64,000 nt of DNA. Source: a virus. Its lineage: Duplodnaviria; Caudoviricetes. The stretch spans positions 138,273-202,272 of IMG/VR virus record IMGVR_UViG_3300046318_000439, one strand, 5' to 3'. Of this stretch, positions 6,705 through 32,638 are shown piece by piece. Position numbers and translations under genes: made by a program. The notes under the pieces were generated by a model that ran no database searches, was not told where the DNA came from, and worked only from the letters and a program-made list of their open reading frames with translations. Each line of letters opens with the position of its first letter. Position 1 is the first letter of the stretch.

Positions 6705-7265
6705 TTATAAACCTTCGTAGATTGCTGAATTGCCAGCATGCTCAAACACTTCAGCACTCTTTAGCTTAACACCTGATCCTACATTATAACGTGCTTGGAA
6801 GACGCGACCATCTGGATGTGTCCATCCCTTACCTTCTTGATACGCTGTTAATATTTCATTCATTGCTGTATAAGCTAGCTTTGAAAACAATTCACAACCA
6901 ACACCATCCACTACGCGTAGATCACATAATGCGCCACGCTCATTAGGTATCTTACTTAAATGATTTTCACTCTCTACATCAACAATTTCATTCATGTGTT
7001 CAAAAAAGTCTAGCATAGGATCATCCTTAGCTACAACCAACGTATGATCAAACATATAGTCAGCCCATTCCTTAAATGCCTTCAGTCCTCCAAAGTCCAT
7101 AACCCAGTTACGGTCATCTAAAGTTTCTGATTCGAAAATAAGTTTAATGCCAATTGAGTATCCGTGTAGCAAACTACAGTGACTATGTCTGCTACGCCAT
7201 TGGCGGAAGCAGCATGATAATCCACGATCGGTACCATATGTTTTTGTTGAAAGATATTTTGCCAT
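6705..7265 (-). CDS. queD: 6-carboxy-5,6,7,8-tetrahydropterin synthase (QueD/PTPS family)
   Basis: CCFRQWRSRHSHCSLLHGYS, WVMDFGGLK, FDHTLVVA: T-fold PTPS motifs. Confidence 0.85.
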   Translation of the reverse strand: MAKYLSTKTYGTDRGLSCCFRQWRSRHSHCSLLHGYSIGIKLIFESETLDDRNWVMDFGGLKAFKEWADYMFDHTLVVAKDDPMLDFFEHMNEIVDVESENHLSKIPNERGALCDLRVVDGVGCELFSKLAYTAMNEILTAYQEGKGWTHPDGRVFQARYNVGSGVKLKSAEVFEHAGNSAIYEGL

Positions 7266-7340
7266 TTGTTTCTCCTATGTTGTACTATATCATAGGCTTG
7301 CAGAATTTATAAAGCGGGATGAATGCCACGAGGCCGCTTT
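7266..7340 (-). promoter_or_regulatory. structured leader of queD: bulged stem AAAGCGG/CCGCTTT and an SD-occluding hairpin CCTATG/CATAGG
   Basis: Inverted repeats 7311-7317/7334-7340 and 7274-7279/7291-7296; the latter covers the AGGAG SD. Confidence 0.5.
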
Positions 7341-9861
7341 AGAAGAACGCATCTAACGTGACACGTTTTTCTGTGTGCCATCCAAGCACATCCAATATTG
7401 TTTGGAGTGGATCGATGAATGACTTTGTGAATTGAGTATCATAATCAATATACTCAATTAAGTCAAGCTCTTTGGGTAGTGAGCCTGATGTTGCAATGAT
7501 GTTACTCATAGCGGGGTTAGGTAACTTGAGATGACAAAATTTAATCTTCTCACCTTCACCTATAGCTTCATATTTAGTAGTCAGCCCATGCTGCTTTAGC
7601 ATGTTGTTGTAAATCAAAGCACCACGAACATGGATTGGTGTAGACTTGCGGAATATAGTAACTGGGTCATAGTATTCCGTCAAGCCACGTACTGTACGTG
7701 GGAAAGCAATATCTTGAAATGGTAATGCTTTGAACTCTTCTCTGAAGTTGGCAATAAAATCTACTAAGTCTTCTTCTGTAGAAGTCATAATCAACTTGAG
7801 GGCCTTCTTAATGTTGTCTCTGCAAGCCGAAGGTGTTGAAGAACGAACAGCTTCAATACCAGACAACTTTAACTTTGGTTCTGAGTACTGCACACCTTCG
7901 TTGTTGTAAACGTTGAGGATGTATCGTTTCTTAGCAGTCCAAATACCCTTATCAGCAATTGCTTCACGCTTCATTTTCATCTTCTGATCATAAGCGTTCA
8001 CGTATGTTGCTAATTCTTCATACGACTTATCAATAAACGGTTCAAATACTTTCTCACAAACAGTATCCAAATACTTAACAGTTTGTTCAGTAGTCTTACC
8101 TTCACAAGTCTGCTTTACGAACTCGCCTAGATCAAGGTACATGGAGTCTGTATCGCAAGCAATAACATAGTCAACGTCAGTCGTCTTCAATACTTTATTC
8201 AAGTATGCGTTCATCTTACGTTCCATCCAGCGGATAGAAAGCTGACCAGACTTAGTAATAGATTCTGCTAGGTCTCTATCGAACCAGCGGAAGTAGATGT
8301 TTGACAAAGCGCCATAAGCGGAGTTGAGTTGGATCTTTTTAGCAAGTTGCATGTTGTGGCATCTTGCGATCTCTTTCTCATTTTCGTATGACTTGTCTGT
8401 TTCGTAGCGTTGCTTAGCAGCCAACATTTGCTTTTTAAACTTAACACGGTCATTATACATCTTCTCCATAAGAGTTGGTAGGAAACCTTGAAAGTCACGA
8501 TCAAACACACAACCAGAGGCAGCGATTGTTTGATTACGTGCTACTAAATCATTCTGAATCATATGGTTGGGTGCTGTAAGAATACCATCCAACATACCTT
8601 CAATACTAATACCTTCGATCTGGCCAGCATATGTTTCTGGTGAGATGTTGTATTGCATAATCAAGTGTGGGTACAAACTATTCAAGTCAAACGACACAAC
8701 CCAGTTATGCATACCAACTTGCGGATCCTTCACATAAGCTCCAACGATTTGAGAATCCTTAGAACCTTTATCTGTCATAGGTACAACAATACCTTTATTG
8801 AGAAGGTAGTTGTGGATAATGATATCCCACATACGCACAGACGTAAAAGCATCACTATAGTTAACGTGGCCGTCATATGCAATCGCATAGATCTGCTCTA
8901 AGAACTTTAACTTGTCTTCTAACTTATCAACAAGTTCGACGTCTCGGATGTTATAATTAATGTAGTTGCGGAAGTCGCCTTTGTAGAACTCATCTAACGT
9001 CTCAAAGCCAAGTTCTGTATAATCTAACTTACGCTCGCCCAATTCGATAAAGGCGATATGATCTAGTTTGAATGACTCTTGTTGAGCGAAAGAAAACTTC
9101 TTATATGCTTGCATGTAGTCAATAATATTAACACCGACTGGAGTAAAAATTGTATACTCTCTACCCATAATCTCAATCGTGCGTTGATCAAGAAGACTCC
9201 ATGGCGACAAACGCTTCGCAGATGCATCGCCCATGGTTCTTCTAATGCGATTAACGAGATATGGAATATCGAAGAACTCAATATTCCAACCAGTGATTAC
9301 ATCTGCGTCGAGTGCTTTCCAGGCTTGCAAGAACTTATCAAGTAAGTCATGTTCATCCTTACATAGCAAGTAGTTAACATCTTCGCTCTCTGGTGTATAT
9401 TCTTTAAGACCAAACACATATGACTTACCTCTCTTGCGCAGAGTGATAGCAGTAACCATTCTATCTGCTTGTGCAATGTCTGGGAAACCACCTTCAGAGT
9501 CAACCTCGATATCCAGAGATACTAAACTAATTAACTTAGGGTCGTAGTCGATGTCGCCTGGATAATTATCATTGATGTAGGTATAGACAAAACTATCCAT
9601 ACCATACAGTGGCTTACCAGGAATACCCTTAAACTGTTTAACATGCTCGCGCGCTTCATACACGCTGTCAAACACTTGCTTATAGACAGGTTCACCCTTT
9701 AATGTTCTAAAGGGTGTTTCGACTCCACGTTCACGATACACGCGATTAGGTTCAAAGATGTATGGTTGGTAACGTACTTCTCGCTGAAACCGTTTACCGT
9801 TTTCATACCCTCTTACAAGAATGTTTGCTTTGTGGAGATGTACATTAGTATAGAAATTCAA
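7339..9861 (-). CDS. gp43: family B DNA polymerase (gp43)
   Basis: Exonuclease DIEV, DLNSLYP, KIQLNSAYG, CDTDS, KKRY. Confidence 0.98.
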   Translation of the reverse strand: MNFYTNVHLHKANILVRGYENGKRFQREVRYQPYIFEPNRVYRERGVETPFRTLKGEPVYKQVFDSVYEAREHVKQFKGIPGKPLYGMDSFVYTYINDNYPGDIDYDPKLISLVSLDIEVDSEGGFPDIAQADRMVTAITLRKRGKSYVFGLKEYTPESEDVNYLLCKDEHDLLDKFLQAWKALDADVITGWNIEFFDIPYLVNRIRRTMGDASAKRLSPWSLLDQRTIEIMGREYTIFTPVGVNIIDYMQAYKKFSFAQQESFKLDHIAFIELGERKLDYTELGFETLDEFYKGDFRNYINYNIRDVELVDKLEDKLKFLEQIYAIAYDGHVNYSDAFTSVRMWDIIIHNYLLNKGIVVPMTDKGSKDSQIVGAYVKDPQVGMHNWVVSFDLNSLYPHLIMQYNISPETYAGQIEGISIEGMLDGILTAPNHMIQNDLVARNQTIAASGCVFDRDFQGFLPTLMEKMYNDRVKFKKQMLAAKQRYETDKSYENEKEIARCHNMQLAKKIQLNSAYGALSNIYFRWFDRDLAESITKSGQLSIRWMERKMNAYLNKVLKTTDVDYVIACDTDSMYLDLGEFVKQTCEGKTTEQTVKYLDTVCEKVFEPFIDKSYEELATYVNAYDQKMKMKREAIADKGIWTAKKRYILNVYNNEGVQYSEPKLKLSGIEAVRSSTPSACRDNIKKALKLIMTSTEEDLVDFIANFREEFKALPFQDIAFPRTVRGLTEYYDPVTIFRKSTPIHVRGALIYNNMLKQHGLTTKYEAIGEGEKIKFCHLKLPNPAMSNIIATSGSLPKELDLIEYIDYDTQFTKSFIDPLQTILDVLGWHTEKRVTLDAFF

Positions 9862-19753: not shown

Positions 19754-20593
19754 TTATTTCAAACCCATCTCTTTGCGAATTTTTGTAGCAGAAATGTTAT
19801 GTGTTGCTTCGTCAAATACTTCTTGCTCAATCGTATATCCTACACCACGACCATAGCCAATATGCACAATGTTAGGTACTACTTGGATTTCGTATTGTCC
19901 TTGATAGATAGGATCTAAGTCTCTACGAATGAATGCCTTAACTTTTTCTACTTCAAATGGATTACTGCCCTGCCAGCCTTGTACATCGCGTATTTGTATT
20001 ACCACTTGCCCTGTACGTTGTATTAATCGGTCAAATAAGGCTCGATGCCCATCATGCCATGGTTGCCAGCGACCTAACATCTGTACTGTTTCTTTTTTCC
20101 AATCAAATGTTGGACGACGTCGATTTTCAATAATATGGTTTCCGATAAACTCAGCCCACTTTTCTGCGTTCTGTTCCGTCACCCTGAAGTCGTATACCTC
20201 AGGCTCCACAAAGGCTGCATTGGTATCAGCATAGCGACCTTCACGAATAGTATCAACCCAGATAGTCCAATCCGCCTTAAAGTTATTACGCATTTCAACT
20301 AAGGGAGCAACAAAGTCGCAGATAACATAATCTCCGCCTGCCTCCAACGAGAATTGGAACATGCGAATGCTTTGACGGATCCGACCCTCATTACTGAAAT
20401 CCCAGTCATTAAACTTACGACGGACATCGTCAGCATTGAACCAAGTTACTTGGGCATTAAGCCCTGTAAGTGGTAGAGATTCAGCACGGTATGAACTGAT
20501 TGTTCCGTGTGCCTCCAAATACTTCTTAAGTGCGCTTGCCAACATTGTTTTACCAGCGCCAGGTAAGCCCATAATTAAAATACGTTTACTCAT
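19754..20593 (-). CDS. APS-kinase-like P-loop domain fused to an HxGH nucleotidyltransferase-like domain
   Basis: MGLPGAGKT, NADDVR, ICDFVAP; C-terminal GRWQPWHDGH. Confidence 0.75.
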   Translation of the reverse strand: MSKRILIMGLPGAGKTMLASALKKYLEAHGTISSYRAESLPLTGLNAQVTWFNADDVRRKFNDWDFSNEGRIRQSIRMFQFSLEAGGDYVICDFVAPLVEMRNNFKADWTIWVDTIREGRYADTNAAFVEPEVYDFRVTEQNAEKWAEFIGNHIIENRRRPTFDWKKETVQMLGRWQPWHDGHRALFDRLIQRTGQVVIQIRDVQGWQGSNPFEVEKVKAFIRRDLDPIYQGQYEIQVVPNIVHIGYGRGVGYTIEQEVFDEATHNISATKIRKEMGLK

Positions 20594-20605: not shown

Positions 20606-21547
20606 TTACTTAAATTCACATTCAACCATTACTTCAGTTAAAAAGGCAACCATGTTAATTTCACTATCCGCTACAAACGCTTGCTTGTATTGGTATTCTG
20701 CAATTAACAATACTAACTGTGGGATTGCAGAAGGCTTAAAATACTCAATAGACGAGTCATAAAACTTTCTAAACAACACTACTGGATCTGTATCTAAATT
20801 CTCTCCTACCCACTTACGCACGTGTGTAAAGTCTTTTGTTTTCAGATAACCAATTAAGTCTTTAATCGACGTATCCTGCACGTTAACAAGAATACCAGAA
20901 TCAATCGTACCAGTAGCACTGTAACGCTGAAGTTCATTAAGTGTACGGCGGAAATCAGGGAAATGCTTTTCTACAACAGCAGCAACTACTTTAGGCTCGA
21001 ATGTAACGCCTTCATCCGTTAAAATGGTAGTTACACGCTTATAGAAGCCTGCTGCTAGTTTTGGTTTTTCTTTTGTAGGAATCCTAAACTCTATTACACT
21101 ACAACGACTGTGTAAAGGTTCAATGATACGATTCTTAAAGTTGCATGTTAGAATGAATCCACAATTCTTACTAAACTCCTCCATGAAGTTACGTAGAGCT
21201 GGTTGTGTAGAGTTTGGATTTAAATAGTCTGCCTCATCGAGGATCACATACTTACGACCGCCTGTCAAGGAAACGCTAGAAGCAAAGTTTGAAATGTCGT
21301 TACGGAGTGTATCAATATTACCATTCATACTACCGTTGATAATAATGTAATCGCATCCTAACTCTTCGAGCATAGCTCTAGCTACAGTCGTTTTACCTGT
21401 ACCAGCTTTGCCGGATAGAAGTAAATTAGGAACTAGTTGATCGTTTATAAACTGCTGGAAAGTTTGCTTAAGTTCGGCCGGTAGAATAGTTTCTTCAATA
21501 GTCTTCGGACGATACTTCTCTACCCACAAGAAGTGGTCATTCATCAT
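20606..21547 (-). CDS. gp44: clamp loader large subunit (AAA+)
   Basis: LWVEKYRP, GKAGTGKTT, ILDEADYL, PLHSRC. Confidence 0.96.
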   Translation of the reverse strand: MMNDHFLWVEKYRPKTIEETILPAELKQTFQQFINDQLVPNLLLSGKAGTGKTTVARAMLEELGCDYIIINGSMNGNIDTLRNDISNFASSVSLTGGRKYVILDEADYLNPNSTQPALRNFMEEFSKNCGFILTCNFKNRIIEPLHSRCSVIEFRIPTKEKPKLAAGFYKRVTTILTDEGVTFEPKVVAAVVEKHFPDFRRTLNELQRYSATGTIDSGILVNVQDTSIKDLIGYLKTKDFTHVRKWVGENLDTDPVVLFRKFYDSSIEYFKPSAIPQLVLLIAEYQYKQAFVADSEINMVAFLTEVMVECEFK

Positions 21548-21711: not shown

Positions 21712-21882
21712 TCACTCTTTTGATTGTTTGTCAACTTTTGCAAATCGAGCACGCTCTTCTGCTACTTCACAACTGATAGCAAAACGCTTAAACTCTGCTG
21801 CTTTAATCGGATCAGCATATCGATTGCTTGCAAGGATACGCTTTGATGATTTACTTAAATTGAATGTTGCACTTGTTTTCAT
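21712..21882 (-). CDS. 56-aa basic protein absent from the ORF track
   Basis: MKTSATFNLSKSSKRILASNRYADPIKAAEFKRFAISCEVAEERARFAKVDKQSKE; ATGA-coupled to gp45. Confidence 0.6.
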   Translation of the reverse strand: MKTSATFNLSKSSKRILASNRYADPIKAAEFKRFAISCEVAEERARFAKVDKQSKE

Positions 21883-22544
21883 TGTCTAGCCTCAAAAGTT
21901 GAATTTGCTTCAGCTACAATCCAGTAATCAACATCCTCACCCTTGAAGTGAGAAATACCTTTACTAGAAATAGCTACATCATAATCACCAGTCATAATCT
22001 TAATGTTTTCTGATCTAAAAATCATTTTAAACTTATGTACTGAAGTACCCACCTGTACAGCGAAGTTGTCGCCAGAAGGATTCTTAGAGTCGATGGCCTG
22101 TACATATACATCAGTCCCATCTCCAACTACAGCAAACTCAGGCATCTTTAAAACGCCCATTGCTTTCTGCACACGATCAAGAGTCACCTGAGTCAGTTTA
22201 AACTCAATTTCTGGATCATTTACTTGCGGTGTCTTATCAGATGCTTGTACAATCATCTTAGGATCAGCGAATGTGTAATTAACACGCTGTTGACCATCTG
22301 TGATTGTCATAAACTTCTCTTGCACAGTTAATGCTGGTTTCTCAAACAAACTCAACACGCTTAGGAACTTGCTTAGGTCATAGATTGCAAACTGACCTTC
22401 TACCTCTTCTTTTAACTTAGCATGTGCTAAGATTGTTTTATTAGGCGACATTGTTTTAAGAACGTCGCCTGGTTTAAACATAATTGAGGGATTGATTGAC
22501 GCAAAGTTCTTGAGGATAGATAACGTTCTGCCTTCAAGTTTCAT
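21879..22544 (-). CDS. gp45: sliding clamp
   Basis: LSILKNFASINPSI, FAIYDLSKFLSVLSLF, ENIKIMTGDYDV. Confidence 0.95.
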   Translation of the reverse strand: MKLEGRTLSILKNFASINPSIMFKPGDVLKTMSPNKTILAHAKLKEEVEGQFAIYDLSKFLSVLSLFEKPALTVQEKFMTITDGQQRVNYTFADPKMIVQASDKTPQVNDPEIEFKLTQVTLDRVQKAMGVLKMPEFAVVGDGTDVYVQAIDSKNPSGDNFAVQVGTSVHKFKMIFRSENIKIMTGDYDVAISSKGISHFKGEDVDYWIVAEANSTFEARQ

Positions 22545-22563: not shown

Positions 22564-23514
22564 TTACTTCTTTTTACCTAGTTTACCAACATCAGCTGTA
22601 GCAGACGCCCCGATTGAAGCAAGGTCAGCCAAACTACCACCGAATACATAACTACCTACGTGCTGCAATTGCATCCATGGGCAGAACCAAACTCTAGCGC
22701 CCATGCGTTGAACATTGTAGCAGAACATATAGTCCTCTGACAAGTAACGATGTGATGAGTGAGCTTCACCTTCAACCATTTGCTTAGCTATCTCTTGCAA
22801 CTCCGCACCTTTACCATCTGCAACATCTCGTAGCAATTGGTGTAGATTCTCATAACCATATCCACGATCAATAATACAATCGAAGTATGCCATGATCTCA
22901 CGTGTGCCATCAAAGTGCTCTGTACGAACATGATCTGGCTTATAATGCAAATGAGGATATGCCTTTTCATAATCTTCAAATGTCTTACGACGTACCATCA
23001 TAAAGCCTGTACCAATCTCCATCACCTCAACAGGAGCGCCAATTGGAATTTCTTTCTGTGAGCCTTTAGGGTTAAACACATAGTCTCCAACAAACTTCTC
23101 AAGCACGTTTGGATCTTTATCTGCAACACCTTTATCAACCGCTTGCTTAATTTTTTCCCACGAAATACATTTCTTAGGATATGGGCCACCCATAACATCA
23201 TATGGACTTTCGTCTGTCATAAGAGCCAATAATGCTAACACGTCTTGTGGATTAAATCCAATATCAGAATCGATAAACATTAGATGGGTTGCACCACTGC
23301 GCATAAACTCATCCACACAATAGTTACGAGCACGAGTGATTAACGATTCGTTGAATAGGAAGTATAACTGTAAAGGGATTTGATACTTAGCACAAACTGC
23401 AGAGAGGTCTGCAACTGATCTAGTGAACATACCAGCACACTGTCCACCATACATCGGAACTGCTACGAATAGTTTACGTTTTTGCAGTTCTGAAATTTCA
23501 ACATTAATTTCCAT
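22564..23514 (-). CDS. GT-A fold glycosyltransferase-like protein
   Basis: FVAVPMYGGQC, ESLITRARN, FIDSDI (DxD), GTGFM, YLSEDYMFC, HVG. Confidence 0.8.
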   Translation of the reverse strand: MEINVEISELQKRKLFVAVPMYGGQCAGMFTRSVADLSAVCAKYQIPLQLYFLFNESLITRARNYCVDEFMRSGATHLMFIDSDIGFNPQDVLALLALMTDESPYDVMGGPYPKKCISWEKIKQAVDKGVADKDPNVLEKFVGDYVFNPKGSQKEIPIGAPVEVMEIGTGFMMVRRKTFEDYEKAYPHLHYKPDHVRTEHFDGTREIMAYFDCIIDRGYGYENLHQLLRDVADGKGAELQEIAKQMVEGEAHSSHRYLSEDYMFCYNVQRMGARVWFCPWMQLQHVGSYVFGGSLADLASIGASATADVGKLGKKK

Positions 23515-24028
23515 TATTTTTCACTCCATATTTTTCATCATGTGATTTACCGACACCATAGTCTCCATCATATTTATGTAGTGCTTGAGCATCAAAGCTT
23601 AAATATTGACCGATGCGAGTACCTTGTTTAATCCTCGCTGGACCCACACCGACGTGTAATACACCAGCCATGACACCATGGTACCCGGAATCATAAAGAC
23701 CAGAAGTAATAAACAACCCATTACGATTGAGAGTAGAACGAGTGATGACCCAACCTGCCTCTCCCTCACCGACATTAATAATATTCTCCATGACAACCTC
23801 ATAATCCCCAGGCTGTAATGTATAGTATCCCTCAGCATCCGGCTCAAGTGCGGCTTCGGTGCCTCTATGCTTCTTATGATCGTTAGAAATTTCGAATACA
23901 TCATTCTTAATCGGAAATATCTTACCTAAACGCAAATCCACAGCATTAGGTTGTACGTCCCCCTCCTGTACGTTTGTTAGTGATGATTTTGAGCCTTCGC
24001 CCATAATATGCTTCATAGCCAATTCCAC
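23504..24028 (-). CDS. dUTPase/dCTP deaminase family protein
   Basis: QPNAVDLRL, RSTLNRNG, GLYDSGYHG, RIGQ. Confidence 0.85.
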   Translation of the reverse strand: MELAMKHIMGEGSKSSLTNVQEGDVQPNAVDLRLGKIFPIKNDVFEISNDHKKHRGTEAALEPDAEGYYTLQPGDYEVVMENIINVGEGEAGWVITRSTLNRNGLFITSGLYDSGYHGVMAGVLHVGVGPARIKQGTRIGQYLSFDAQALHKYDGDYGVGKSHDEKYGVKNNGN

Positions 24029-24570
24029 TCCTGTAGTTTTTTATCAAATGCTTTTAATACTTCGTCTGTAAATTCTCGTAGCGTAGACTTATTCTCTAGC
24101 ACTAGATTACAAACGGAGTTATCAAAACCACGTTCCGTAATATGAGTATCGATAATTCCAAGAGGTCTATCAATCTTCACAATTTTTGCTCCTAGGTTCT
24201 GAAGATGAATCAATTCATTATCGAAACGAAGGTCTGTAATCACCCACACTGCATCTTCCGATGCAATTCTTTCATCCACATACTCTACAAACTGATTTAC
24301 ATCATATTTTCGCATCAACATACCGATTTCACGAACAACACGACGTCCATCTACTGATGTACTGTTGGACACTAGTATAGACCGTTTAAATGCGTCATAC
24401 TCAGCAATCGTTTTTAGTCCAAATATATGCATAATCTCACGTTTAATTGGATCAGCAAATGCAATGCGTCTAAAGGGACGATCAGTTGTAGAATAAGCAT
24501 CTAGAAGGATATCAGCTACAGTATCCTTCCCACAACCTTTAGCTCCTGTTAATGCAATTATCTTCGACAT
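24013..24570 (-). CDS. deoxynucleoside monophosphate kinase (T4 gp1-like)
   Basis: GAKGCGKDT, AFADPIK, ITDLRFDNE, H.TE. Confidence 0.88.
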   Translation of the reverse strand: MSKIIALTGAKGCGKDTVADILLDAYSTTDRPFRRIAFADPIKREIMHIFGLKTIAEYDAFKRSILVSNSTSVDGRRVVREIGMLMRKYDVNQFVEYVDERIASEDAVWVITDLRFDNELIHLQNLGAKIVKIDRPLGIIDTHITERGFDNSVCNLVLENKSTLREFTDEVLKAFDKKLQEWNWL

Positions 24571-25445
24571 AGACGATCAATCACTCCAATATTAAATTTT
24601 ACAACATCATCGTGCGCTTTCACTTCATGATTGTAGCTGAAATTAACTTCAGACTCAACTTTGCCGTGTTCAAGGCCAGACGGGGAGCGATCGAAGGGTA
24701 CCCCATTAATACCAGCCCACACAGCTGCTGATGAGTCCCATGAATAGATATATGGTTGATATTCTCGTAATAACTCAATCTCGTTTGGACCATCTGTCAT
24801 ACCCAAGCAGTGAAACTTCTTAATAGCTCTTGCTGGTTGCAATAGTCCACGGTCATCTAATGACTTAAACATCATCCATCGTGATAAGAAACGTTGCAGT
24901 TTGTATGCGTCATTGCGTTTACCATCACCGTGCTTAGACTCATTTACTTCAAATGCAATAGGACATGCTAGAATAGATACACCAATCAAATCCACTTCTG
25001 GATTCTCAATAGCCCATTCATATGAATTCATAATACCTTCCACATCACCCAATTCACTTTGAGGAACATAGAATGTACCGAACCCAGCATCCTTCAATTG
25101 AGGAATCTGTTTGATTGCTGTGTTCATTGTTTTCGACCATTCTTCTTTTGGATAGTCAGACATAACAATAACATCAGCCTTACAACGCTTACCCATCTCA
25201 ATTAACTTGTTCGGATCATACATTGGACGACCTTGCTTAAACATCTCGAAAGCTGAGTTGTCCATAATCTTTACTTTACCATCATCTAGATTAGCATAGT
25301 AGTCAGCATATGCTGGATCTTGTTCCACAAGATGAGCAAGCAATAAGTGAGCTCCATTAGTTTTTGTATATCTGTCTAGGAAGTGGGTGGGAGCAATGTG
25401 ACAGAATTTAATTCCATCATTAATATTTTTATTTAAGGGTGTCAT
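24558..25445 (-). CDS. dpdA: TGT-fold (DpdA-like) guanine transglycosylase candidate
   Basis: TIM-barrel pattern with IMDNSAFE (cf. DSG), FHCLG (cf. HxxG), SWDSS (cf. SxDS); neighbours folE and queE. Confidence 0.6.
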   Translation of the reverse strand: MTPLNKNINDGIKFCHIAPTHFLDRYTKTNGAHLLLAHLVEQDPAYADYYANLDDGKVKIMDNSAFEMFKQGRPMYDPNKLIEMGKRCKADVIVMSDYPKEEWSKTMNTAIKQIPQLKDAGFGTFYVPQSELGDVEGIMNSYEWAIENPEVDLIGVSILACPIAFEVNESKHGDGKRNDAYKLQRFLSRWMMFKSLDDRGLLQPARAIKKFHCLGMTDGPNEIELLREYQPYIYSWDSSAAVWAGINGVPFDRSPSGLEHGKVESEVNFSYNHEVKAHDDVVKFNIGVIDRLCRR

Positions 25446-25476
25446 TTAATTTTAGCCTTGTTGTTAGATTGTTGCA

Positions 25477-25920
25477 TTATCTCTCAAAGTAGATACGGCA
25501 ACCATTTTCATTATCTTCTGATACTTCAATGCGGATCTCACGAGAAGGCCACGTCACTGCAATCTTGTCGTATAAATCTTTTGCAGTCATTTCACATGAT
25601 TTGTAATCTACTGATAATGTCTTCTCACTATACCAGCTTTCTAGTATTCTTTTCAACTGGATAAACTCTACATCTCGGTTGTCGTGGAATACTTCCATCT
25701 CTACTCTAAAGTGAAAGATATGGCGGTGAGGCGATGCCAAGAAACTAACATCAAGCCAATCGCCTGTTGCTAGTTTCGGATCGGTCGCTGCTGCTGGATA
25801 TCTGTGAATGCCTTCTTTTTGAAATGTGACCCAGATAAAAGACCTAGGCAACTTACCAATAGTAAAGTTATCCTCAACTCCATCTGGTAGTGTGTATGTT
25901 ATTTCAGTAGGTGTGCTCAT
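25477..25920 (-). CDS. dpdL: QueD-like T-fold protein, DpdL-type CDG decarboxylase candidate
   Basis: LASPHRHIF matches the LxxxHRHxF motif I recall for DpdL; VEFIQLK, SCEM, EVSEDNENG. Confidence 0.65.
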   Translation of the reverse strand: MSTPTEITYTLPDGVEDNFTIGKLPRSFIWVTFQKEGIHRYPAAATDPKLATGDWLDVSFLASPHRHIFHFRVEMEVFHDNRDVEFIQLKRILESWYSEKTLSVDYKSCEMTAKDLYDKIAVTWPSREIRIEVSEDNENGCRIYFER

Positions 25921-26420
25921 ATTTTTAACTTCTTCATGTTAATAAAACTTGGTATATTATCGCAATAGAGTAATATCGTTCTGTTACCCCATTGATCGGT
26001 GTATACGCGATATTCACTAGCATTATTGGTAACAAACTGTTGCATATCCTTACGTTTATATAATACAGCATCATGCGTATTAATGTCAATATGGATAATA
26101 AACTCACTAATCTTTTTAGGGTTGAATAACCAACCACGTGGTCCTACCTCAACGTAAAACCGTTTGTTGTTGAGATTGCCTTTGACATCAACAGTAAACA
26201 ATTTGTCACCCTTTTGCACAATAAAATCAATTCCTGATACCTGATCGTGATAATCGCTTTCACGGTCGTGAGCAATCATTCCTTGATTTGCAACGTGTTG
26301 TGCGTATAGCAATTCAGCTGCTCGTCCTTTTGCTCCGTTAGCCCCATATGCTCCCTCAAGCGTCGGTGTCCATTCTGGTGTCAATCTAGACATAAAACTC
26401 CATAATAAAAAAGCCCACAC
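25917..26420 (-). CDS. PD-(D/E)xK-like nuclease-fold protein
   Basis: E(LLY)...GIDFIV...TVDVK. Confidence 0.5.
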   Translation of the reverse strand: MWAFLLWSFMSRLTPEWTPTLEGAYGANGAKGRAAELLYAQHVANQGMIAHDRESDYHDQVSGIDFIVQKGDKLFTVDVKGNLNNKRFYVEVGPRGWLFNPKKISEFIIHIDINTHDAVLYKRKDMQQFVTNNASEYRVYTDQWGNRTILLYCDNIPSFINMKKLKI

Positions 26421-26439
26421 CCAATTAAGAGTGTAGGCT
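26407..26439 (-). terminator. rho-independent terminator
   Basis: AGCCTACACTC-TTAATT-GGGTGTGGGCT followed by a T run. Confidence 0.8.
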
Positions 26440-26456
26440 CATATCACTTGTTTATA

Positions 26457-26720
26457 TTAAACGCGTGAGAACAATGCATCTGCGCCTAACAAAGCAACAG
26501 CTGCTGCAACCATACGACGGCTTGGTGTGCCCAAGCGATACTTCAAAGTCTCGCGACCTTTAGTATCTGTATGTTTGTTCAAGTAGATCGCATGACCTTC
26601 TTGACGTAGCAAAGACACTACTTTGCGTGGTGATGCAATGTTAAACTGCGCACCAATTTGCTTAGCTGTCAATTGACGGCCTTCTTGTAACACATTCAAT
26701 ACTTTCTGCTTTTGATTCAT
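26457..26720 (-). CDS. winged helix-turn-helix protein
   Basis: QKQKVLNVLQEGRQLTAKQI...VVSLLRQEGHAIY...KYRLG. Confidence 0.75.
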   Translation of the reverse strand: MNQKQKVLNVLQEGRQLTAKQIGAQFNIASPRKVVSLLRQEGHAIYLNKHTDTKGRETLKYRLGTPSRRMVAAAVALLGADALFSRV

Positions 26721-26770
26721 ATAGTACTCCTACAAAGTTAATAACATAATCTGGAAACCAGAATGTTCAT

Positions 26771-26798
26771 TCTATAGCATAATTAAAAAAGAAGTCAA
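26771..26798 (-). promoter_or_regulatory. sigma70-type promoter
   Basis: TTGACT-16 nt-TATAGA with TG extension. Confidence 0.6.
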
Positions 26799-26801
26799 CT
26801 G

Positions 26802-27494
26802 TTATTTGTTACTACCAATACGGGCAATGTTCAAAAACTCACGACGCACTTCTGAATCGGGAGCTGAGAACAGACCACGGGTTGATAATGTAACAGTTGA
26901 TGAGCCTGTGTCTTGAATGCCACGGCTCTTGACGCAGTAGTGGGCAGCGTCAATGTATACAGCGACGTGTTCTGTCTCTGTAATAAATGCAATTGCTTCA
27001 CAGATCTGCTCTGTTAGACGTTCTTGCACTTGTGGGCGCTTTGCAAAGAATTCTACAATACGGTTTAGCTTAGATAAGCCAAGAACCTTCTTGGTTGGAA
27101 TATATGCAACAGTCGCCAACCCATCAATAACTACAAAGTGGTGTTCGCAGTTAGATTGGACGTTAACATTACGCTCAAGAACAAATGAATGGTTGTAATC
27201 CATTTTGTTTTCGATCGTAGTGCATTTTGGGAACTTTGTGTAATCAAGACCCCAGAAGATTTCGTTGACATACATTTTCGCTACACGGTTAGGGGTATCT
27301 TCCAAAGAGTCATCATTTAAGTCAAGACCAAGAGTATCCATAATCTGTTTGAATAATGGAGCAATCTCTGCAATCTTATCTTCTGATGGACGGAGAACTT
27401 TATTAGTGATAGGCGTTTCCAAGCCTTTTGATAATAAATGTTGGTGAACGCGCAAACCAAGTTCTGCATTCGCTTTATGCACTGGATGTGACAT
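26802..27494 (-). CDS. folE: GTP cyclohydrolase I
   Basis: DTPNRVAKMY, SNCEHH, GLSKLNRIV, RPQVQERLT, HYCVKSRG. Confidence 0.97.
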   Translation of the reverse strand: MSHPVHKANAELGLRVHQHLLSKGLETPITNKVLRPSEDKIAEIAPLFKQIMDTLGLDLNDDSLEDTPNRVAKMYVNEIFWGLDYTKFPKCTTIENKMDYNHSFVLERNVNVQSNCEHHFVVIDGLATVAYIPTKKVLGLSKLNRIVEFFAKRPQVQERLTEQICEAIAFITETEHVAVYIDAAHYCVKSRGIQDTGSSTVTLSTRGLFSAPDSEVRREFLNIARIGSNK

Positions 27495-27592
27495 AGATTG
27501 TATTTCCTTTCAGGTTGTCGGTGGAAAGGTCAAGGACCACCAGAATGATTTCTGGTATACTACTTATAAAAAAATAGCACCACTTGGATGCC

Positions 27593-27621
27593 ATTTTATA
27601 TCTTTAAATGTCTAAAGTCAA
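27593..27621 (-). promoter_or_regulatory. sigma70-type promoter upstream of folE
   Basis: TTGACT-17 nt-TAAAAT. Confidence 0.7.
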
Positions 27622-27637
27622 CTATCAGTTGTAATGA

Positions 27638-27961
27638 TTATGCACATTGTTTTTCCATTTCAGCATACCATGCTTCTTGCTCACGTTTACGCTCATCATC
27701 AAGCCACTTAGCGCGCTGAGCAAGCTCAGGATCAGTCTCCTCTATTACCCAACCCTGCTCTCGTAAATGCTCACGACCTTGGAAGGTCTGCTTGAGTTCG
27801 TCCATTTCATTATGGATTCGTTGAATCTGACCCTCAAGAAACTCTTGATCGTTCCATTGCTCATTACTCACCCAACGAGGACGGAATCCATAAAAGTCTT
27901 TATGGAAATCGCTAAATTCACATTGGAGCTTTTCTACTACTGTAAAATCATCCCAAGACAT
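27638..27961 (-). CDS. hypothetical protein (likely start MSWDDF)
   Basis: SD GAGAGG upstream; SDFHKDFYGFRPR motif. Confidence 0.7.
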   Translation of the reverse strand: MSWDDFTVVEKLQCEFSDFHKDFYGFRPRWVSNEQWNDQEFLEGQIQRIHNEMDELKQTFQGREHLREQGWVIEETDPELAQRAKWLDDERKREQEAWYAEMEKQCA

Positions 27962-27991
27962 TTCAAAACCTCTCTCAATTAACATATAACC

Positions 27992-28020
27992 ATTATCCGG
28001 TTTTATTAATAAAAGGTCAA
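27992..28020 (-). promoter_or_regulatory. sigma70-type promoter
   Basis: TTGACC-17 nt-GATAAT. Confidence 0.65.
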
Positions 28021-28055
28021 CAGCTAAAATAACGTGTAAATATTGGGTAGGATAC

Positions 28056-28081
28056 AAAAACAGCCCACATAAAATGGGCTG
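28056..28081 (-). terminator. rho-independent terminator after the PRTase gene
   Basis: CAGCCCA...TGGGCTG followed by TTTTT. Confidence 0.75.
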
Positions 28082-28104
28082 TATAATGTTATTTTAAATC
28101 TAAT

Positions 28105-28578
28105 TTAGGTCGGAGTTGAGGGGGTTGAGGTTGAACCTGGATCAGATTCCCACCAAAAATGTACCCATTCTTTATATGACTCACGACTAATAGTGGTACC
28201 ACAATAATCTGGCTTGATGCTTTGGTCTTTGTTATAAATCATAACAGCAATACCAACCTTATCTCGGCCGCAGCCCCAATCTTCTAACAACTCTTTCATT
28301 GTACGGCCAGAATCTAAAATATCATCTACTAACAACACATTCTTGCCTTCAGCAATATCTTCCGCGATATCTAATGCCGATTCCCTCATTTGATCGCTAT
28401 GAAAAGTTGACCACGACACTGTACGCATTGGAATACCTAAACGATGCGATAGATACACAGCAGGAATTGCACCGCCTCTCACAATACCGACAACGTAGTC
28501 GTAAAACTTACCAGAACCAGTAATTTGATGTACCAATGAGTCTGCATCTTGTTTGAATTGATTATATGAATAATACAT
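28105..28578 (-). CDS. type I phosphoribosyltransferase (Gpt/xanthine-guanine PRT-like)
   Basis: GIVRGG, VLLVDDILDSGRTM PRPP loop, WVHFWWE. Confidence 0.88.
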   Translation of the reverse strand: MYYSYNQFKQDADSLVHQITGSGKFYDYVVGIVRGGAIPAVYLSHRLGIPMRTVSWSTFHSDQMRESALDIAEDIAEGKNVLLVDDILDSGRTMKELLEDWGCGRDKVGIAVMIYNKDQSIKPDYCGTTISRESYKEWVHFWWESDPGSTSTPSTPT

Positions 28579-28579
28579 T

Positions 28580-29461
28580 TTATTTTCCTATCACGTTACC
28601 GAACACGTAACAATGATTACGTGTAGCTACATTAAATCCTCGTTTCATTGCTTCAATACTAATCTTAGCAACTTGTTCATCTTCTTGTTGATCTTTCGTA
28701 GCACCAACTGGCATCACCCAGAAGTCTACTGGAAGTGAAGAAGCAGCGTAGATATCTTTTACAGCTTGATCTACTTCAGCCCAGCATGCATCTGTTCCAT
28801 TAACCACAAACTTAACCACATGCGTGTAGCCAGCCTTAATATAAGAAGCAATCACTTCAGGCTTCACAGCATCTTTCTCACCAGACACCGTAAACAGTTT
28901 AGGCGACATTGCGAAGTGGAAATCAATTCCAGAATAATGAATCATCTCTTCCATCGCTGGAGTAATCTCTTTAGTGGCATTGGTCTCAATTGTAATCAGC
29001 TTAGGCATGTTATCACGCTTCTTAAGCTCTTCTACGACAGCAATCATAGCCTTCTGCCACATCATTGGCTCGCCACCAGTAAAACACAATTGTGTGTCAA
29101 TTCCTGTAATAGGATGAACCCATTTACCTTCTGGATTAGTTTCATGCTTAAGCATGTCAATCAACTTATTGCCAACTTCTTCTTCATTATTGTCTTGTAC
29201 TAAATGCTTATACTTGGCTGACCAGGAGTAAGAAGAGTCACATCCATGCTTCCATACTGGCAAGTCTTCAATACGATTAACAGTACTGATATCAAACGTT
29301 GCATATGGTAAGATGTATGTTTCTGGATTGGTAGGATCCGATTGTCCGAATCCATTACATTCTAGGTTACATCCAAAGAATCGAATCCAAGCACTAGGCT
29401 TGCCAGCATATAATGCCTCACCTTGGAAACTATAAAACATTTCTGATATTCTAATTTTCAT
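28580..29461 (-). CDS. queE: 7-carboxy-7-deazaguanine synthase (QueE-like radical SAM)
   Basis: ISEMFYSFQGEA, WIRFFGCNLECNGFG...CDS, FTGGEP, ETN, SPK. Confidence 0.85.
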   Translation of the reverse strand: MKIRISEMFYSFQGEALYAGKPSAWIRFFGCNLECNGFGQSDPTNPETYILPYATFDISTVNRIEDLPVWKHGCDSSYSWSAKYKHLVQDNNEEEVGNKLIDMLKHETNPEGKWVHPITGIDTQLCFTGGEPMMWQKAMIAVVEELKKRDNMPKLITIETNATKEITPAMEEMIHYSGIDFHFAMSPKLFTVSGEKDAVKPEVIASYIKAGYTHVVKFVVNGTDACWAEVDQAVKDIYAASSLPVDFWVMPVGATKDQQEDEQVAKISIEAMKRGFNVATRNHCYVFGNVIGK

Positions 29462-29727
29462 TTAATAAACCACCTAAAGATGCCGATCATGTCGACAATA
29501 ATAAAAAATGCATTCTGTAAGAGCATAGGATAGTCTTTTAGCTTGCTAAAGACAACGACTAAAAGTATATGAGCAAAAAGGAATGATACAAACCCCCACC
29601 GCGATATCTCTATATTAAGAGCTAACACGCCTCCAGAAAATATGAAGAGAGTTGTTGCTATCCATTTAAATAGTACCGTCCAGTTTAACTGGAGGTAGGT
29701 CTGAAGGCTTGTAATATACTTCACCAC
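29458..29727 (-). CDS. small 3-TM membrane protein
   Basis: Three hydrophobic segments; start overlaps the def stop, and its stop overlaps the queE start. Confidence 0.6.
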   Translation of the reverse strand: MVKYITSLQTYLQLNWTVLFKWIATTLFIFSGGVLALNIEISRWGFVSFLFAHILLVVVFSKLKDYPMLLQNAFFIIVDMIGIFRWFIK

Positions 29728-30223
29728 GTTTCGTTTGCCTGTCTAATTGTTTCTTTTGGTTCCATGCTCGATTGAGGTGCGGAACTGATGCACGCTTAGT
29801 AAAGATGATACCATCCAAATGATCCATCTCATGTAAGAACCCTCTAGCTGTCATGCCAATAAACTTTTCCGTATGAGTATCACCATAACAATCCTCATAA
29901 CGAACTTTAATTACCTTAGGGCGCTTTATTTTAATGAATAAATTTGGAAAAGTCAAGCAACCTTCATCCAATAAAACCATTTCAGATGTTTGGTCAATGA
30001 TACGAGGATTAAAACACACCAACGGTTCTGCTGACCATAAAGCAAATACACGGTATGGAAGACCGCATTGGTTGGCAGACAGTCCTAGACCTTTGTTGTC
30101 CTTCATCGTTTCGATTAGATCGTTGGCCAGTTGTATAGGATCAGTAGGAGGATTAGAAAAGTCAAAATCTTCCATCTCTTGATACAGCAGCTTGTCTGTA
30201 GTTGGTTTAATTTGTAATATCAT
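29666..30223 (-). CDS. def: peptide deformylase
   Basis: GLGLSANQ, EGCL, HEMDHL. Confidence 0.95.
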   Translation of the reverse strand: MILQIKPTTDKLLYQEMEDFDFSNPPTDPIQLANDLIETMKDNKGLGLSANQCGLPYRVFALWSAEPLVCFNPRIIDQTSEMVLLDEGCLTFPNLFIKIKRPKVIKVRYEDCYGDTHTEKFIGMTARGFLHEMDHLDGIIFTKRASVPHLNRAWNQKKQLDRQTKRGEVYYKPSDLPPVKLDGTI

Positions 30224-30280: not shown

Positions 30281-30925
30281 ATGATAATGGATAAAATAAT
30301 TAAATTCAACAAGCACTCGTCTAATAAAAAACAGATGGATGATCTAGGCATTGAAGATAAAAATGGTATTTACGAGCTGCCAGTATCTATTTTTTTAGAT
30401 AAATTTCCTTGTTCAAACATAGTTAAGTTGAATTGTATATGCATGTCATGCAACACCACATACAGTCTCGCTGTCAGTGACTACACGAGAAAAAAACACA
30501 AAAACTACTGTTCCATATGTCTAAAGACAAAGATTCTTACTGGACCAGCCGCTTCTCAATATGGTAAACATCATAATGCTGGAAAACAAAAAACAGAAGA
30601 ACATAAGATGAAAATGAAAGGCCCTCGCGACAACATGAAGGGACATTTAAATCCAAACTGGAATCCTAATACTCCAGCGTTTAAGAGATATAAGAATAGA
30701 GTTCACCAACTTTCAAACCGAACATACTACCGTCACCAACTAATTATCAACCCCTGCAACCATCCTCGAACTCTAGCAGGTGTGGAAGGAGGATGGCAGC
30801 TTGATCACATAATCTCAGTGAAAGAATGTTATAAGCTAGGATTGAGTGAAGAACAAGCATCGGCTCTAGAAAATTTACAGATGTTACCATGGAAAACCAA
30901 TTTATTGAAATCAACTACCCGTTGA
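30281..30925 (+). mobile_element. HNH homing endonuclease, inverted orientation
   Basis: CxxC motifs, NUMOD-like basic repeat, LDHIIS...NLQMLPWKTNLLKS; SD AAGGAG before the ATG at 30281. Confidence 0.75.
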
Positions 30926-32635: not shown

Positions 32636-32638
32636 TAA

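Follow-up and report, generated by a model that had tools for sequence, protein, structure and literature searches.

The window analysed here, 64,000 nucleotides long, comes from the genome of a freshwater T4-like phage, which is complete at 202,272 bp and has terminal repeats. A module is inserted between the gp46/47-like genes (30911-33700) and the gene for the gp45 sliding clamp (21879..22544, minus strand, PF09116), a marker of the T4 backbone that lies downstream of it, with gp44 at 20606-21547. The module encodes QueE and FolE, a purine phosphoribosyltransferase (PRTase) of Gpt type, a T-fold protein of DpdL type, a dNMP kinase of T4-gp1 type and two further proteins, one of 295 aa with a TGT fold and the other with a dUTPase/Dcd fold. 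The first-pass annotation had placed these genes in one co-oriented block, and all are present on the minus strand, recognised by profile matches or motifs.

The QueE-like radical-SAM enzyme, assigned as the 7-carboxy-7-deazaguanine (CDG) synthase (28580..29461), matches phrog_2076 (5.6e-47) and PF13353; the NCBIfam QueE models match the N-terminus only, far below their cut-offs. It lies within the flank in 41 of the 80 closest related loci, over which the gene-context counts were taken. FolE, GTP cyclohydrolase I (26802..27494), scores 302 bits against NF006824 (cut-off 202) and 2e-56 against PF01227. The QueD-like CPH4 synthase (6705..7265; PF01242 45 bits, phrog_2389 1.5e-32), also on the minus strand, directly adjoins the gp43-type family-B DNA polymerase (7339..9861, minus strand; PF00136, PF03104). 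Its motif, HCSLLHGY, is of a CxxxHGY variant kept in the clade in place of CxxxHGH.

The QueD paralogue of DpdL type (25477..25920; phrog_17812 5e-30) carries LASPHRHIF, which fits LxxxHRHxF, and LxxPHRH[IM]F is present in every DpdL motif variant tallied among relatives. A tblastn search relates it to DpdL of Acidovorax phage ACP17 (7e-33) and to CGPG_00067 of phiST (1e-6). The gene stands directly upstream of DpdA3 in 76/76 testable loci. The 295-aa protein (24558..25445), for which a TGT fold had been suggested, is assigned to the DpdA3 family of transglycosylases by fold and by profile and consists of a minimal TGT barrel without the Cys/His zinc cluster.

Three further, poorly conserved minus-strand ORFs lie in the block and were missing from the initial list. 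One of 139 aa (27638..28057; 1/80 related loci) has no assigned function and no match in Pfam, PHROG or NCBIfam; the accessory 87-aa product is a winged helix-turn-helix protein (26457..26720; PF14090 5e-5, phrog_4973; 12/80), and the accessory 167-aa product has weak similarity to YraN, a nuclease-fold protein (25917..26420; NF009154 4e-4, far below cut-off; 18/80). Just downstream of the module, on the same strand, is a weakly GT-A-like 316-aa protein (22564..23514; phrog_1574 8e-60), with weak matches to PF13506 and PF00535 below cut-off, present in 52/80 loci.

QueC and QueF had been reported absent from the window. This holds for the complete 202-kb genome, in which QueC was not found and the only QueF signal was sub-threshold and within FolE; that genome also has neither a Pfam TGT nor a tRNA-type TGT. 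The gene content supports assignment as a QueC-less FolE/QueD/QueE, DpdL and DpdA3 system, for which dDG is therefore the expected product. The module type is already known, being the same kind of system as that of Cellulophaga phage phiST. The dDG product named in the first-pass annotation is what would be expected, given that phiST has the gene set of the present locus and that its DNA is 100% dDG (Cui, Hutinet et al., NAR 2023, PMC10516641).

What then of the two genes that follow DpdA3? The dNMP kinase (24013..24570, minus strand; PF21448 73.5 bits, phrog_139 7e-39) is encoded by the single DNMK locus in the genome. In 44 of the 80 related loci the slot that follows DpdA3 is occupied by a gp1-type DNMK, in 34 by an ORF of the T7-gp1.7 type, DUF3310, and in none (0/80) by both; it is empty in only two, both at a contig end. 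DUF3310 is the sole Pfam domain of T7 gp1.7, a RefSeq-annotated nucleotide kinase, and the slot ORF also matches PHROGs named nucleotide kinase. Rhizobium phage RHph_I1_18 and five metagenomic representatives encode DpdA3 fused to DUF3310. The contig of one 84%-complete relative is without a gp1-type DNMK; its locus (L079) has the DUF3310 ORF in the slot. In some sublineages the dUTPase-fold gene comes immediately after DpdA3 with no intervening kinase.

The dUTPase/Dcd-fold gene (23504..24028, minus strand; PF22769 55 bits) follows DpdA3 in 77/77 testable loci. Its product resembles a dNTP pyrophosphatase, not a deaminase, the position of the Dcd catalytic Glu being Gly in the alignment. In PDB and NCBIfam it is matched best by dUTPases, although the score for NF002598 dUTPase (86 bits) is below the cut-off of 130. 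It is the sole dUTPase-fold gene, and no MazG was found in the genome. Close homologues in the phage collection are confined to four phages, exactly those with a close DpdA3. Elsewhere the arrangement recurs with other folds: MazG - DpdL - AAA_18 kinase - DpdA3 in phiST, MazG/PRA-PH - DpdA3 - DpdN - AAA_28 kinase in immuto 2-6A, an HD and P-loop fusion - DpdA3 - AAA_28 kinase in CP220, and DpdA3 - PolA - dUTPase_2 in 45-kb contigs. MA9V-3, Bakedbeans and loci L098, L099 and L102 likewise have kinase- or hydrolase-type neighbours of DpdA3. No such kinase or hydrolase lies in the cluster of six DpdA1/DpdA2 loci (9g, KVP40, Rosebush, MS1, VpKK5 and PaMx25).

We propose, with a probability of roughly one in two, that DpdA3 swaps the base on free deoxynucleotides before replication and not on finished DNA. 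FolE, QueD and QueE, enzymes of families established to convert GTP to CDG, would provide the precursor. DpdL would decarboxylate CDG to 7-deazaguanine (DG), an activity that is so far a literature proposal only (PMC10516641), and DpdA3 would exchange guanine for DG; virion DNA should therefore carry dDG for most or all dG. In such a scheme the dUTPase-fold enzyme would hydrolyse dGTP to dGMP, thereby emptying the dGTP pool, and DpdA3 would act on the free deoxynucleotide to release guanine and give dDGMP. The dNMP kinase would then produce dDGDP, host NDP kinase dDGTP, and the gp43 polymerase would incorporate it into DNA. The PRTase is most likely an accessory, which would recycle the guanine set free in the exchange, by way of GMP, to the GTP on which FolE acts.

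Gene context lends real comparative support to placing the kinase and the TGT-fold enzyme at the nucleotide level, as in the scheme of the first-pass annotation; the use of the PRTase to make a nucleotide from the modified base is not supported. The reading is favoured by the alternation of DNMK and DUF3310 in one slot, the fusions, the invariant dUTPase-fold gene, the restriction of its close homologues to phages with a close DpdA3, the repetition of kinase and hydrolase neighbours with different folds in unrelated lineages and their absence from the six DpdA1/DpdA2 loci. It also gains from published observations: complete replacement is reported only for DpdA3 phages, free ADG nucleoside occurs in cells infected by CP220, and DpdA3 with DpdL failed to modify DNA in E. 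coli (PMC10516641). The substrate specificity of the enzymes of the module cannot, though, be read from their sequences.

It is quite possible that the exchange is instead post-replicative. DpdA3 would then flip out and exchange guanine in replicated phage DNA, to completion, with the PRTase salvaging guanine and the two following genes belonging to ordinary T4-like nucleotide metabolism: the kinase would re-phosphorylate dNMPs from degraded host DNA, the dUTPase-fold enzyme would remove dUTP, and both would owe their position solely to insertion of the module into a region of replication and nucleotide genes. All characterised relatives (TGT, ArcTGT, bacterial DpdA and DpdA1) share the fold and act on polynucleotides, and we know of no TGT-superfamily enzyme that acts on a free nucleotide, which weakens our proposal. 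So does the published model, in which post-replicative exchange is argued for all DpdA subfamilies (PMC10516641). The kinase and the dUTPase-fold gene are single copies and could be housekeeping genes placed here by chance, the latter with dUTPases as its best matches; the sublineages that have no kinase between DpdA3 and the dUTPase-fold gene and the relative lacking a gp1-type DNMK in its contig also count against exchange on free nucleotides. Across 51 DpdA3 clusters, scanned with HMMs of low sensitivity, a kinase-type neighbour was seen in 19, a hydrolase in 19 and both in 12, about half having neither within 4 kb. DpdA3 moreover often adjoins a DNA polymerase gene, as does DpdA1 in 9g and VpKK5. 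The post-replicative model leaves unexplained, however, why exactly the same slot is filled by one or the other of two unrelated kinase types, why DpdA3 is fused to a gp1.7-type domain, why four hydrolase families (dUTPase/Dcd, MazG/PRA-PH, dUTPase_2 and HD) stand beside DpdA3 in unrelated phages and not beside DpdA1/2, and why replacement reaches 100% in DpdA3 phages only.

A route through the PRTase (28105..28578, minus strand; PF00156 67.8 bits) is improbable. Here 7-deazaguanine and PRPP would give 7-deaza-GMP, to be phosphorylated, reduced by ribonucleotide reductase (RNR) and incorporated as dDGTP, DpdA3 having a minor or different role. The gene does sit within the Que cluster, where it adjoins QueE in this phage as in BUCT-ZZ01, immuto and L096; in phiST it adjoins a DNMK-like kinase and RNR, Brevundimonas phage MaInes has the order RNR - dNMP kinase - FolE - PRTase, and 11 of the 14 phage-collection records with a homologue carry DpdA3. 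Yet six complete DpdA3 phage genomes have no PRTase, among them CP220 with its 100% replacement, and the universal component is DpdA3. A homologous domain is fused to FolE in the DpdA1-type Queuovirinae VpKK5 and PaMx25, which modify G partially. Of the NCBIfam models, XPRT and HGPRT come nearest to the PRTase, each with a score under its cut-off, and the top PDB matches are the purine PRTase 1vdm (3e-12) and E. coli XGPRT. Canonical 6-oxopurine PRTase motifs are retained and the motif VLLVDDILDSGRT is conserved; in such enzymes the Asp of the PRPP motif, kept here in LDSG, engages N7, an atom that 7-deazaguanine lacks. Nor would the product, a ribonucleotide, be served by a dNMP kinase.

That the module leaves phage DNA unmodified, being inactive or serving as a source of 7-deazaguanine for tRNA or for some other small molecule, is more improbable still: the phage is uncultured, DpdL activity is a proposal and QueD has CxxxHGY, but the string from DpdL through DpdA3 and the kinase slot to the dUTPase-fold gene is kept with motifs intact across hundreds of contigs, the DNA of all three DpdA3 phages examined by LC-MS is fully modified (PMC10516641) and the genome has no tRNA-type TGT.

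The logic of base exchange on free nucleotides resembles that of T4 hydroxymethyl-cytosine, made by the gp56 dCTPase, gp42 dCMP hydroxymethylase and gp1 dNMP kinase, and of Z-genome phages, with PurZ and DatZ/MazZ: a dNTP hydrolase, a base change on the monophosphate, a dNMP kinase and full replacement before replication. The kinase here is of the T4 gp1 family. The difference is that the base changer would be a TGT-fold transglycosylase, for which there is no known precedent on free nucleotides.

The preQ0-type systems of DpdA1/DpdA2 phages (9g, VpKK5, PaMx25, Rosebush, MS1 and KVP40) have the FolE/QueD/QueE core in common with the present one, as well as a transglycosylase of the TGT superfamily, which often has replication genes as neighbours, and VpKK5 and PaMx25 also have the PRTase domain, as the FolE fusion. 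They differ in possessing QueC, in having a cluster that contains neither kinase nor NTP hydrolase and in replacing G only partially (PMC10516641). Five of the six records, the exception being KVP40, name the DpdA a queuine tRNA-ribosyltransferase, and the DpdA3 profile matches none of the six.

In immuto and CP220 the neighbours of DpdA3 include a P-loop kinase and an NTP hydrolase, as they do here; immuto shares the order QueE - PRTase - FolE. Both carry QueC and have other end products, immuto has QueF and DpdN in addition, and CP220, which has no PRTase, combines an HD-domain hydrolase with a P-loop domain in one protein. A further close counterpart is phiST. Its backbone is that of a 79-kb Cbastvirus as opposed to a 202-kb T4-like myovirus, its pyrophosphatase is MazG and not of dUTPase/Dcd fold, its kinase is AAA_18 and not of T4-gp1 type, and the two DpdA3 proteins are similar by profile only (2.5e-43 with A1), not by tblastn; QueD is displaced by about 17 kb here, unlike in phiST. 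Both have FolE, QueD, QueE, DpdL with LxxxHRHxF and DpdA3 without QueC; each genome also encodes a PRTase and a dNTP pyrophosphatase, and a small P-loop kinase is the neighbour of DpdA3 in both.

IMGVR_UViG_3300046318_000439 is the complete genome of an uncultured phage, 202,272 bp long with direct terminal repeats, and the window is its final 64 kb. A T4-like backbone is represented by the family-B polymerase (7339-9861), the gp44 clamp loader (20606-21547), the gp45 clamp (21879-22544) and gp47/gp46-like genes (30911-33700). The modification module lies between gp46 and gp45 with all genes on the minus strand. At its upstream edge is a peptide deformylase (29666-30223), followed by QueE (28580-29461), a purine PRTase (28105-28578), a 139-aa orphan ORF, FolE (26802-27494), a small wHTH protein, a 167-aa ORF, a 147-aa T-fold protein (25477-25920), a 295-aa protein without a Pfam match (24558-25445), a T4 gp1-type dNMP kinase (24013-24570) and a dUTPase/Dcd-fold protein (23504-24028). 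A QueD-like protein (6705-7265, minus strand) is encoded immediately after the polymerase, about 17 kb from the other pathway genes. Across the whole 202,272-bp genome neither QueC nor a Pfam TGT domain was found, and the search for QueF gave a single signal, sub-threshold and within FolE. The domain matches and the whole-genome search bear out the first-pass annotation with respect to this gene block and the absence of QueC and QueF. No match to the block was obtained by megablast among 50,697 phage records. Contigs from 20 public metagenome runs of freshwater or aquatic origin, in 15 studies, contain near-identical DNA, one of them possibly the source, and the lineage has a wide freshwater distribution.

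Three features at or near the module edges are noted. In Rhizobium phage RHph_I1_18 a deformylase likewise adjoins QueD. A 316-aa protein (22564-23514, minus strand) matches phrog_1574, function unassigned, and displays sub-threshold GT-A/GT2 matches and a DSD motif; in 52 of the 80 related loci its gene comes after the one for the dUTPase-fold protein, and it may be part of the module. Just past the clamp loader is the gene of a 279-aa protein (19754-20593, minus strand), possibly an enzyme resembling polynucleotide kinase, the N-terminal domain of which is of the P-loop kinase-like type (APS_kinase/AAA_18/KTI12).

The 295-aa protein is a DpdA3. Fold comparison reveals the TGT-type (beta/alpha)8 barrel that had been proposed for it at first pass, and was the one informative approach, as sequence and profile searches against PDB sequences returned nothing meaningful. 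The assignment follows from profile A1, built from 78 homologues of the protein, which finds the literature-named DpdA3 proteins of immuto 2-6A (1.5e-48), MA9V-3 (1.5e-45), phiST (CGPG_00065, 2.5e-43) and CP220 (CPT_0056, 2.5e-36) and nothing in six DpdA1/2 loci. The protein itself matches immuto DpdA (tblastn, 1e-6) and phrog_20335, the phiST family (6e-5), and has 1804 homologues in metagenomes. The barrel is minimal and, from the sequence, the C-terminal part is without the Cys/His zinc cluster. Conservation is at least 90% for two aspartates, D62 within DNSAFE and D237 within WDSS, which from their motif positions may correspond to TGT Asp102 and Asp280. The isoelectric point was considered as a proxy for DNA binding and rejected; DpdA3 is acidic (median pI 5.7) and the DNA-acting DpdA of 9g and KVP40 are likewise acidic.

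DpdL has been defined as a QueD-like T-fold paralogue, LxxxHRHxF replacing CxxxHGH, that occurs with FolE, QueD, QueE and DpdA and without QueC (PMC10516641). The 147-aa protein fits this definition, and the earlier suggestion of a T-fold protein with that motif is upheld. It carries LASPHRHIF, the motif being retained in all variants tallied among relatives, and tblastn matches it to the DpdL of Acidovorax phage ACP17 (7e-33) and phiST (1e-6). It is a predicted CDG (7-carboxy-7-deazaguanine) decarboxylase, an activity proposed for the family by authors whose own heterologous test failed (PMC10516641). The protein encoded next to the polymerase belongs to the PTPS/QueD fold family (PF01242, 45 bits; phrog_2389, 1.5e-32). 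It has CSLLHGY in place of the CxxxHGH signature and is therefore described as QueD-like; the final zinc-ligand histidine is tyrosine in nearly all relatives (CxxxHGY). According to established family chemistry GTP would be converted to H2NTP by FolE, to CPH4 by the QueD-like protein and to CDG by QueE, with DpdL, as proposed in the literature, the putative source of 7-deazaguanine. An identical set of FolE, QueD, QueE, DpdL and DpdA3 without QueC occurs in phiST, the DNA of which is 100% dDG, the deoxynucleoside of that base (PMC10516641). The locus itself is an ordinary system of the phiST kind, a type already known.

A different arrangement was observed in Synechococcus phage BUCT-ZZ01 (ON615601.1, locus L091), with the order QueE, PRTase, QueD, FolE, two glycosyltransferase-like genes and DpdL. 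The glycosyltransferases flank DpdL and may be compared with the weakly GT-A-like 316-aa protein. The DpdA3 profile has no match anywhere in the 156 kb, so that this phage has DpdL but no DpdA that can be recognised.

We now consider the genes that follow DpdA3. The dNMP kinase is of the T4 gp1 type, with matches to PF21448 (73.5 bits, cut-off 27.1) and phrog_139 (7e-39) and an N-terminal P-loop, GAKGCGKD, in which G9, G12, G14 and K15 are invariant. The next protein has the dUTPase/Dcd fold (PF22769, 55 bits, cut-off 27) and scores below the dUTPase equivalog NF002598 (86 bits, cut-off 130). The catalytic glutamate of dCTP deaminases aligns to glycine, so it is not a deaminase. It keeps the motif III aromatic residue (GLYDSGYHG), which in dUTPases excludes ribonucleotides. 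We regard it as a putative dNTP pyrophosphatase. This genome has no second gene of either kind, kinase or dUTPase-fold, and both may have a housekeeping role. A complex prediction for DpdA3 with the kinase, run without controls, scored 0.06, which weighs neither for nor against association.

The 80 closest IMG/VR loci, with DpdA3 identities of 50-74%, were obtained in a locus search using 20 closer sequences. DpdL lies directly before DpdA3 in all 76 testable loci, the remaining four being cut by contig ends, and the dUTPase-fold gene lies downstream in 77 of 77 that could be tested. The slot between DpdA3 and the dUTPase-fold gene holds a gp1-type kinase in 44 loci and an ORF of about 100 aa with DUF3310 in 34, never both; the two loci with neither are at contig ends. 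T4 gp1 and T7 gp1.7 both phosphorylate dGMP and dTMP. T7 gp1.7, a nucleotide kinase by RefSeq annotation, has DUF3310 as its sole Pfam domain (4.5e-23), and the DUF3310 ORF of the slot also matches PHROGs labelled nucleotide kinase. In RHph_I1_18 and five metagenomic representatives DUF3310 is fused to the C-terminus of DpdA3, and in the former the dUTPase-fold gene immediately follows the fusion. Among 50,697 phage records, close homologues of the dUTPase-fold protein are confined to four, and these coincide with the records that contain a close DpdA3. There are also close sublineages in which a Dcd-fold gene directly follows DpdA3 with no kinase between.

Unrelated lineages place comparable genes beside DpdA3. 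The order is MazG, DpdL, AAA_18 kinase, DpdA3 in phiST, the kinase of which (CGPG_00066) was set aside by Cui et al. as having no homologues elsewhere (PMC10516641), and AAA_18 kinase, DpdA3 in MA9V-3. In immuto 2-6A a MazG/PRA-PH gene and a small ORF precede DpdA3, with a small ORF, DpdN and an AAA_28 kinase after it. Bakedbeans has an AAA_28 kinase, DpdA3 and a DNMK-like kinase, with a Dcd-fold gene 6 kb farther. In CP220 (locus L094, CPT_0055-0057) DpdA3 stands between a fusion of an HD phosphohydrolase with an AAA_33 P-loop domain and an AAA_28 kinase-like gene; a triphosphohydrolase of the HD type would yield a nucleoside, a possible origin of the free ADG nucleoside reported from CP220-infected cells (PMC10516641). 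Among metagenomic contigs, L098 has a MazG-like ORF after DpdA3, L099 the order PRTase, Dcd-fold gene, kinase-like gene, DpdA3, PolB, and L102 an AAA_28 gene before DpdA3, while L100 and L101 carry Dcd-fold genes. The order DpdA3, PolA, dUTPase_2 marks a group of contigs of roughly 45 kb; this trio was noted in IMG/VR contigs of about 10-60 kb (L155, L157, L161, L182 and L183), none of which has Que genes near DpdA3; the family-A polymerase was demonstrated in L155, with an N-terminal UDG-superfamily domain, and the dimeric dUTPase_2-type pyrophosphatase in the other four. Contig L160 (3453-4001, 5539-6081) encodes, directly upstream of a DpdA3, a protein with DUF1599 ('nucleotide modification associated domain 1'), with QueC and a PLD-family nuclease downstream.

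In contrast, annotation and custom HMMs gave no such kinase or hydrolase in the DpdA1/DpdA2 clusters of 9g, KVP40, Rosebush, MS1, VpKK5 and PaMx25. The pattern is nevertheless not universal beside DpdA3. When 326 DpdA3 loci were grouped into 51 clusters at 45% identity and neighbours within 4 kb scored by custom HMMs, 19 clusters had a kinase-type neighbour, 19 a hydrolase, 26 either and 12 both, all lower bounds because the HMMs are insensitive and dUTPase_2 genes were missed until revealed by Pfam.

From gene context we favour, at a probability of about 0.5, a model in which the exchange is made on the free deoxynucleotide. The fuller proposal is that DpdA3 is a nucleotide-level transglycosylase, not a DNA-modifying enzyme, and that hydrolase, kinase and polymerase together lead to fully G-free DNA; we hold it tentatively, at a little under an even chance. 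The hydrolase would make dGMP and drain dGTP, DpdA3 would swap guanine for 7-deazaguanine on the dGMP (or dG or dGTP) from the adjacent dNTP hydrolase, the adjacent gp1- or gp1.7-type kinase would re-phosphorylate the exchanged nucleotide, and host NDP kinase and then the gp43 polymerase would complete the route into DNA. This would account for the kinase slot, the DpdA3 fusions, the recurrence of hydrolases of different folds and the free ADG nucleoside. It would also account for complete replacement being restricted to DpdA3 phages and for the failure of DpdA3 and DpdL alone in E. coli (PMC10516641). Each of these observations is left as coincidence by the published model of post-replicative exchange on DNA. 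That model, which we judge a serious possibility though short of even, is favoured by all superfamily members characterised so far and by the interpretation in print.

What then is the role of the PRTase? It matches PF00156 (67.8 bits), falls below the Gpt equivalog NF006613 (51 bits, cut-off 138) and has 1vdm and E. coli XGPRT as best PDB matches, both of which align with its PRPP motif VLLVDDILDSGRT and its C-terminal WVHFWWE. By resemblance it would be a Gpt-like type I 6-oxopurine PRTase. No more than 14 phage records have a homologue, and 11 of these, from the phiST group, immuto and two Brevundimonas phages, also have DpdA3; in several lineages the PRTase gene adjoins QueE or FolE. No PRTase domain was found in six complete DpdA3 phage genomes (D479, Ahp1, RHph_I1_18, Bakedbeans, MA9V-3 and CP220), the last with 100% of G replaced (PMC10516641). 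A homologous domain precedes FolE as an N-terminal fusion in the DpdA1-type Queuovirinae VpKK5 (orf32, locus L339) and PaMx25 (gp38/folE region, locus L340), as one open frame (FVDDIIDSGATM ... WVVFPWE) that the PaMx25 annotation divides into two genes. The idea of a DpdA3-specific PRTase was dropped once these fusions were seen. The absences and fusions link the PRTase to FolE, the GTP-consuming first enzyme, and not to DpdA3.

Each exchanged base frees one guanine and each new 7-deazaguanine costs one GTP, so the simplest reading under either insertion model is that the PRTase likely recycles guanine to GMP, and on to GTP, to feed FolE. The first-pass annotation suggested that the PRTase could make the modified nucleotide for the kinase, a route we consider very improbable given the six DpdA3 genomes that lack it, its fusion to FolE in DpdA1 phages and a product that is a ribonucleotide and therefore would not feed a dNMP kinase. 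Of the nucleotide-level replacement proposed there, exchange by DpdA3 in company with a kinase is the part that gene context favours and the PRTase step the part that falls.

We found no paper linking a kinase, dNTP hydrolase or PRTase to DpdA3, and PMC10516641 mentions neither a kinase nor a phosphoribosyltransferase. As far as can be told, the strict alternation of DNMK and DUF3310 within a single slot, the recognition of DUF3310 as the T7 gp1.7 domain in a DpdA3 context and the absence of the PRTase from six DpdA3 genomes are new. The PRTase, undiscussed in the literature on these clusters, gains a likely role in feeding FolE. T4-like phages of fresh and marine waters commonly carry the phiST-type dDG pathway, and the comparative pattern, a kinase slot with two unrelated types, fusions of DpdA3 to a kinase domain and dNTP hydrolases of several Pfam families, makes it testable how DpdA3 phages achieve 100% replacement of G. 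The main interest is this testable challenge to the post-replicative model. If the nucleotide route is true, DpdA3 would be the first enzyme of the TGT fold for which a mononucleotide substrate is known and would offer an enzymatic route to 7-deaza-dGTP analogues. The proposed succession of hydrolase, DpdA3 and kinase follows the same logic as gp56, gp42 and gp1 of T4, and would bring to four the bases known to be replaced in full before replication, the others being hmC, hmU/U and Z.
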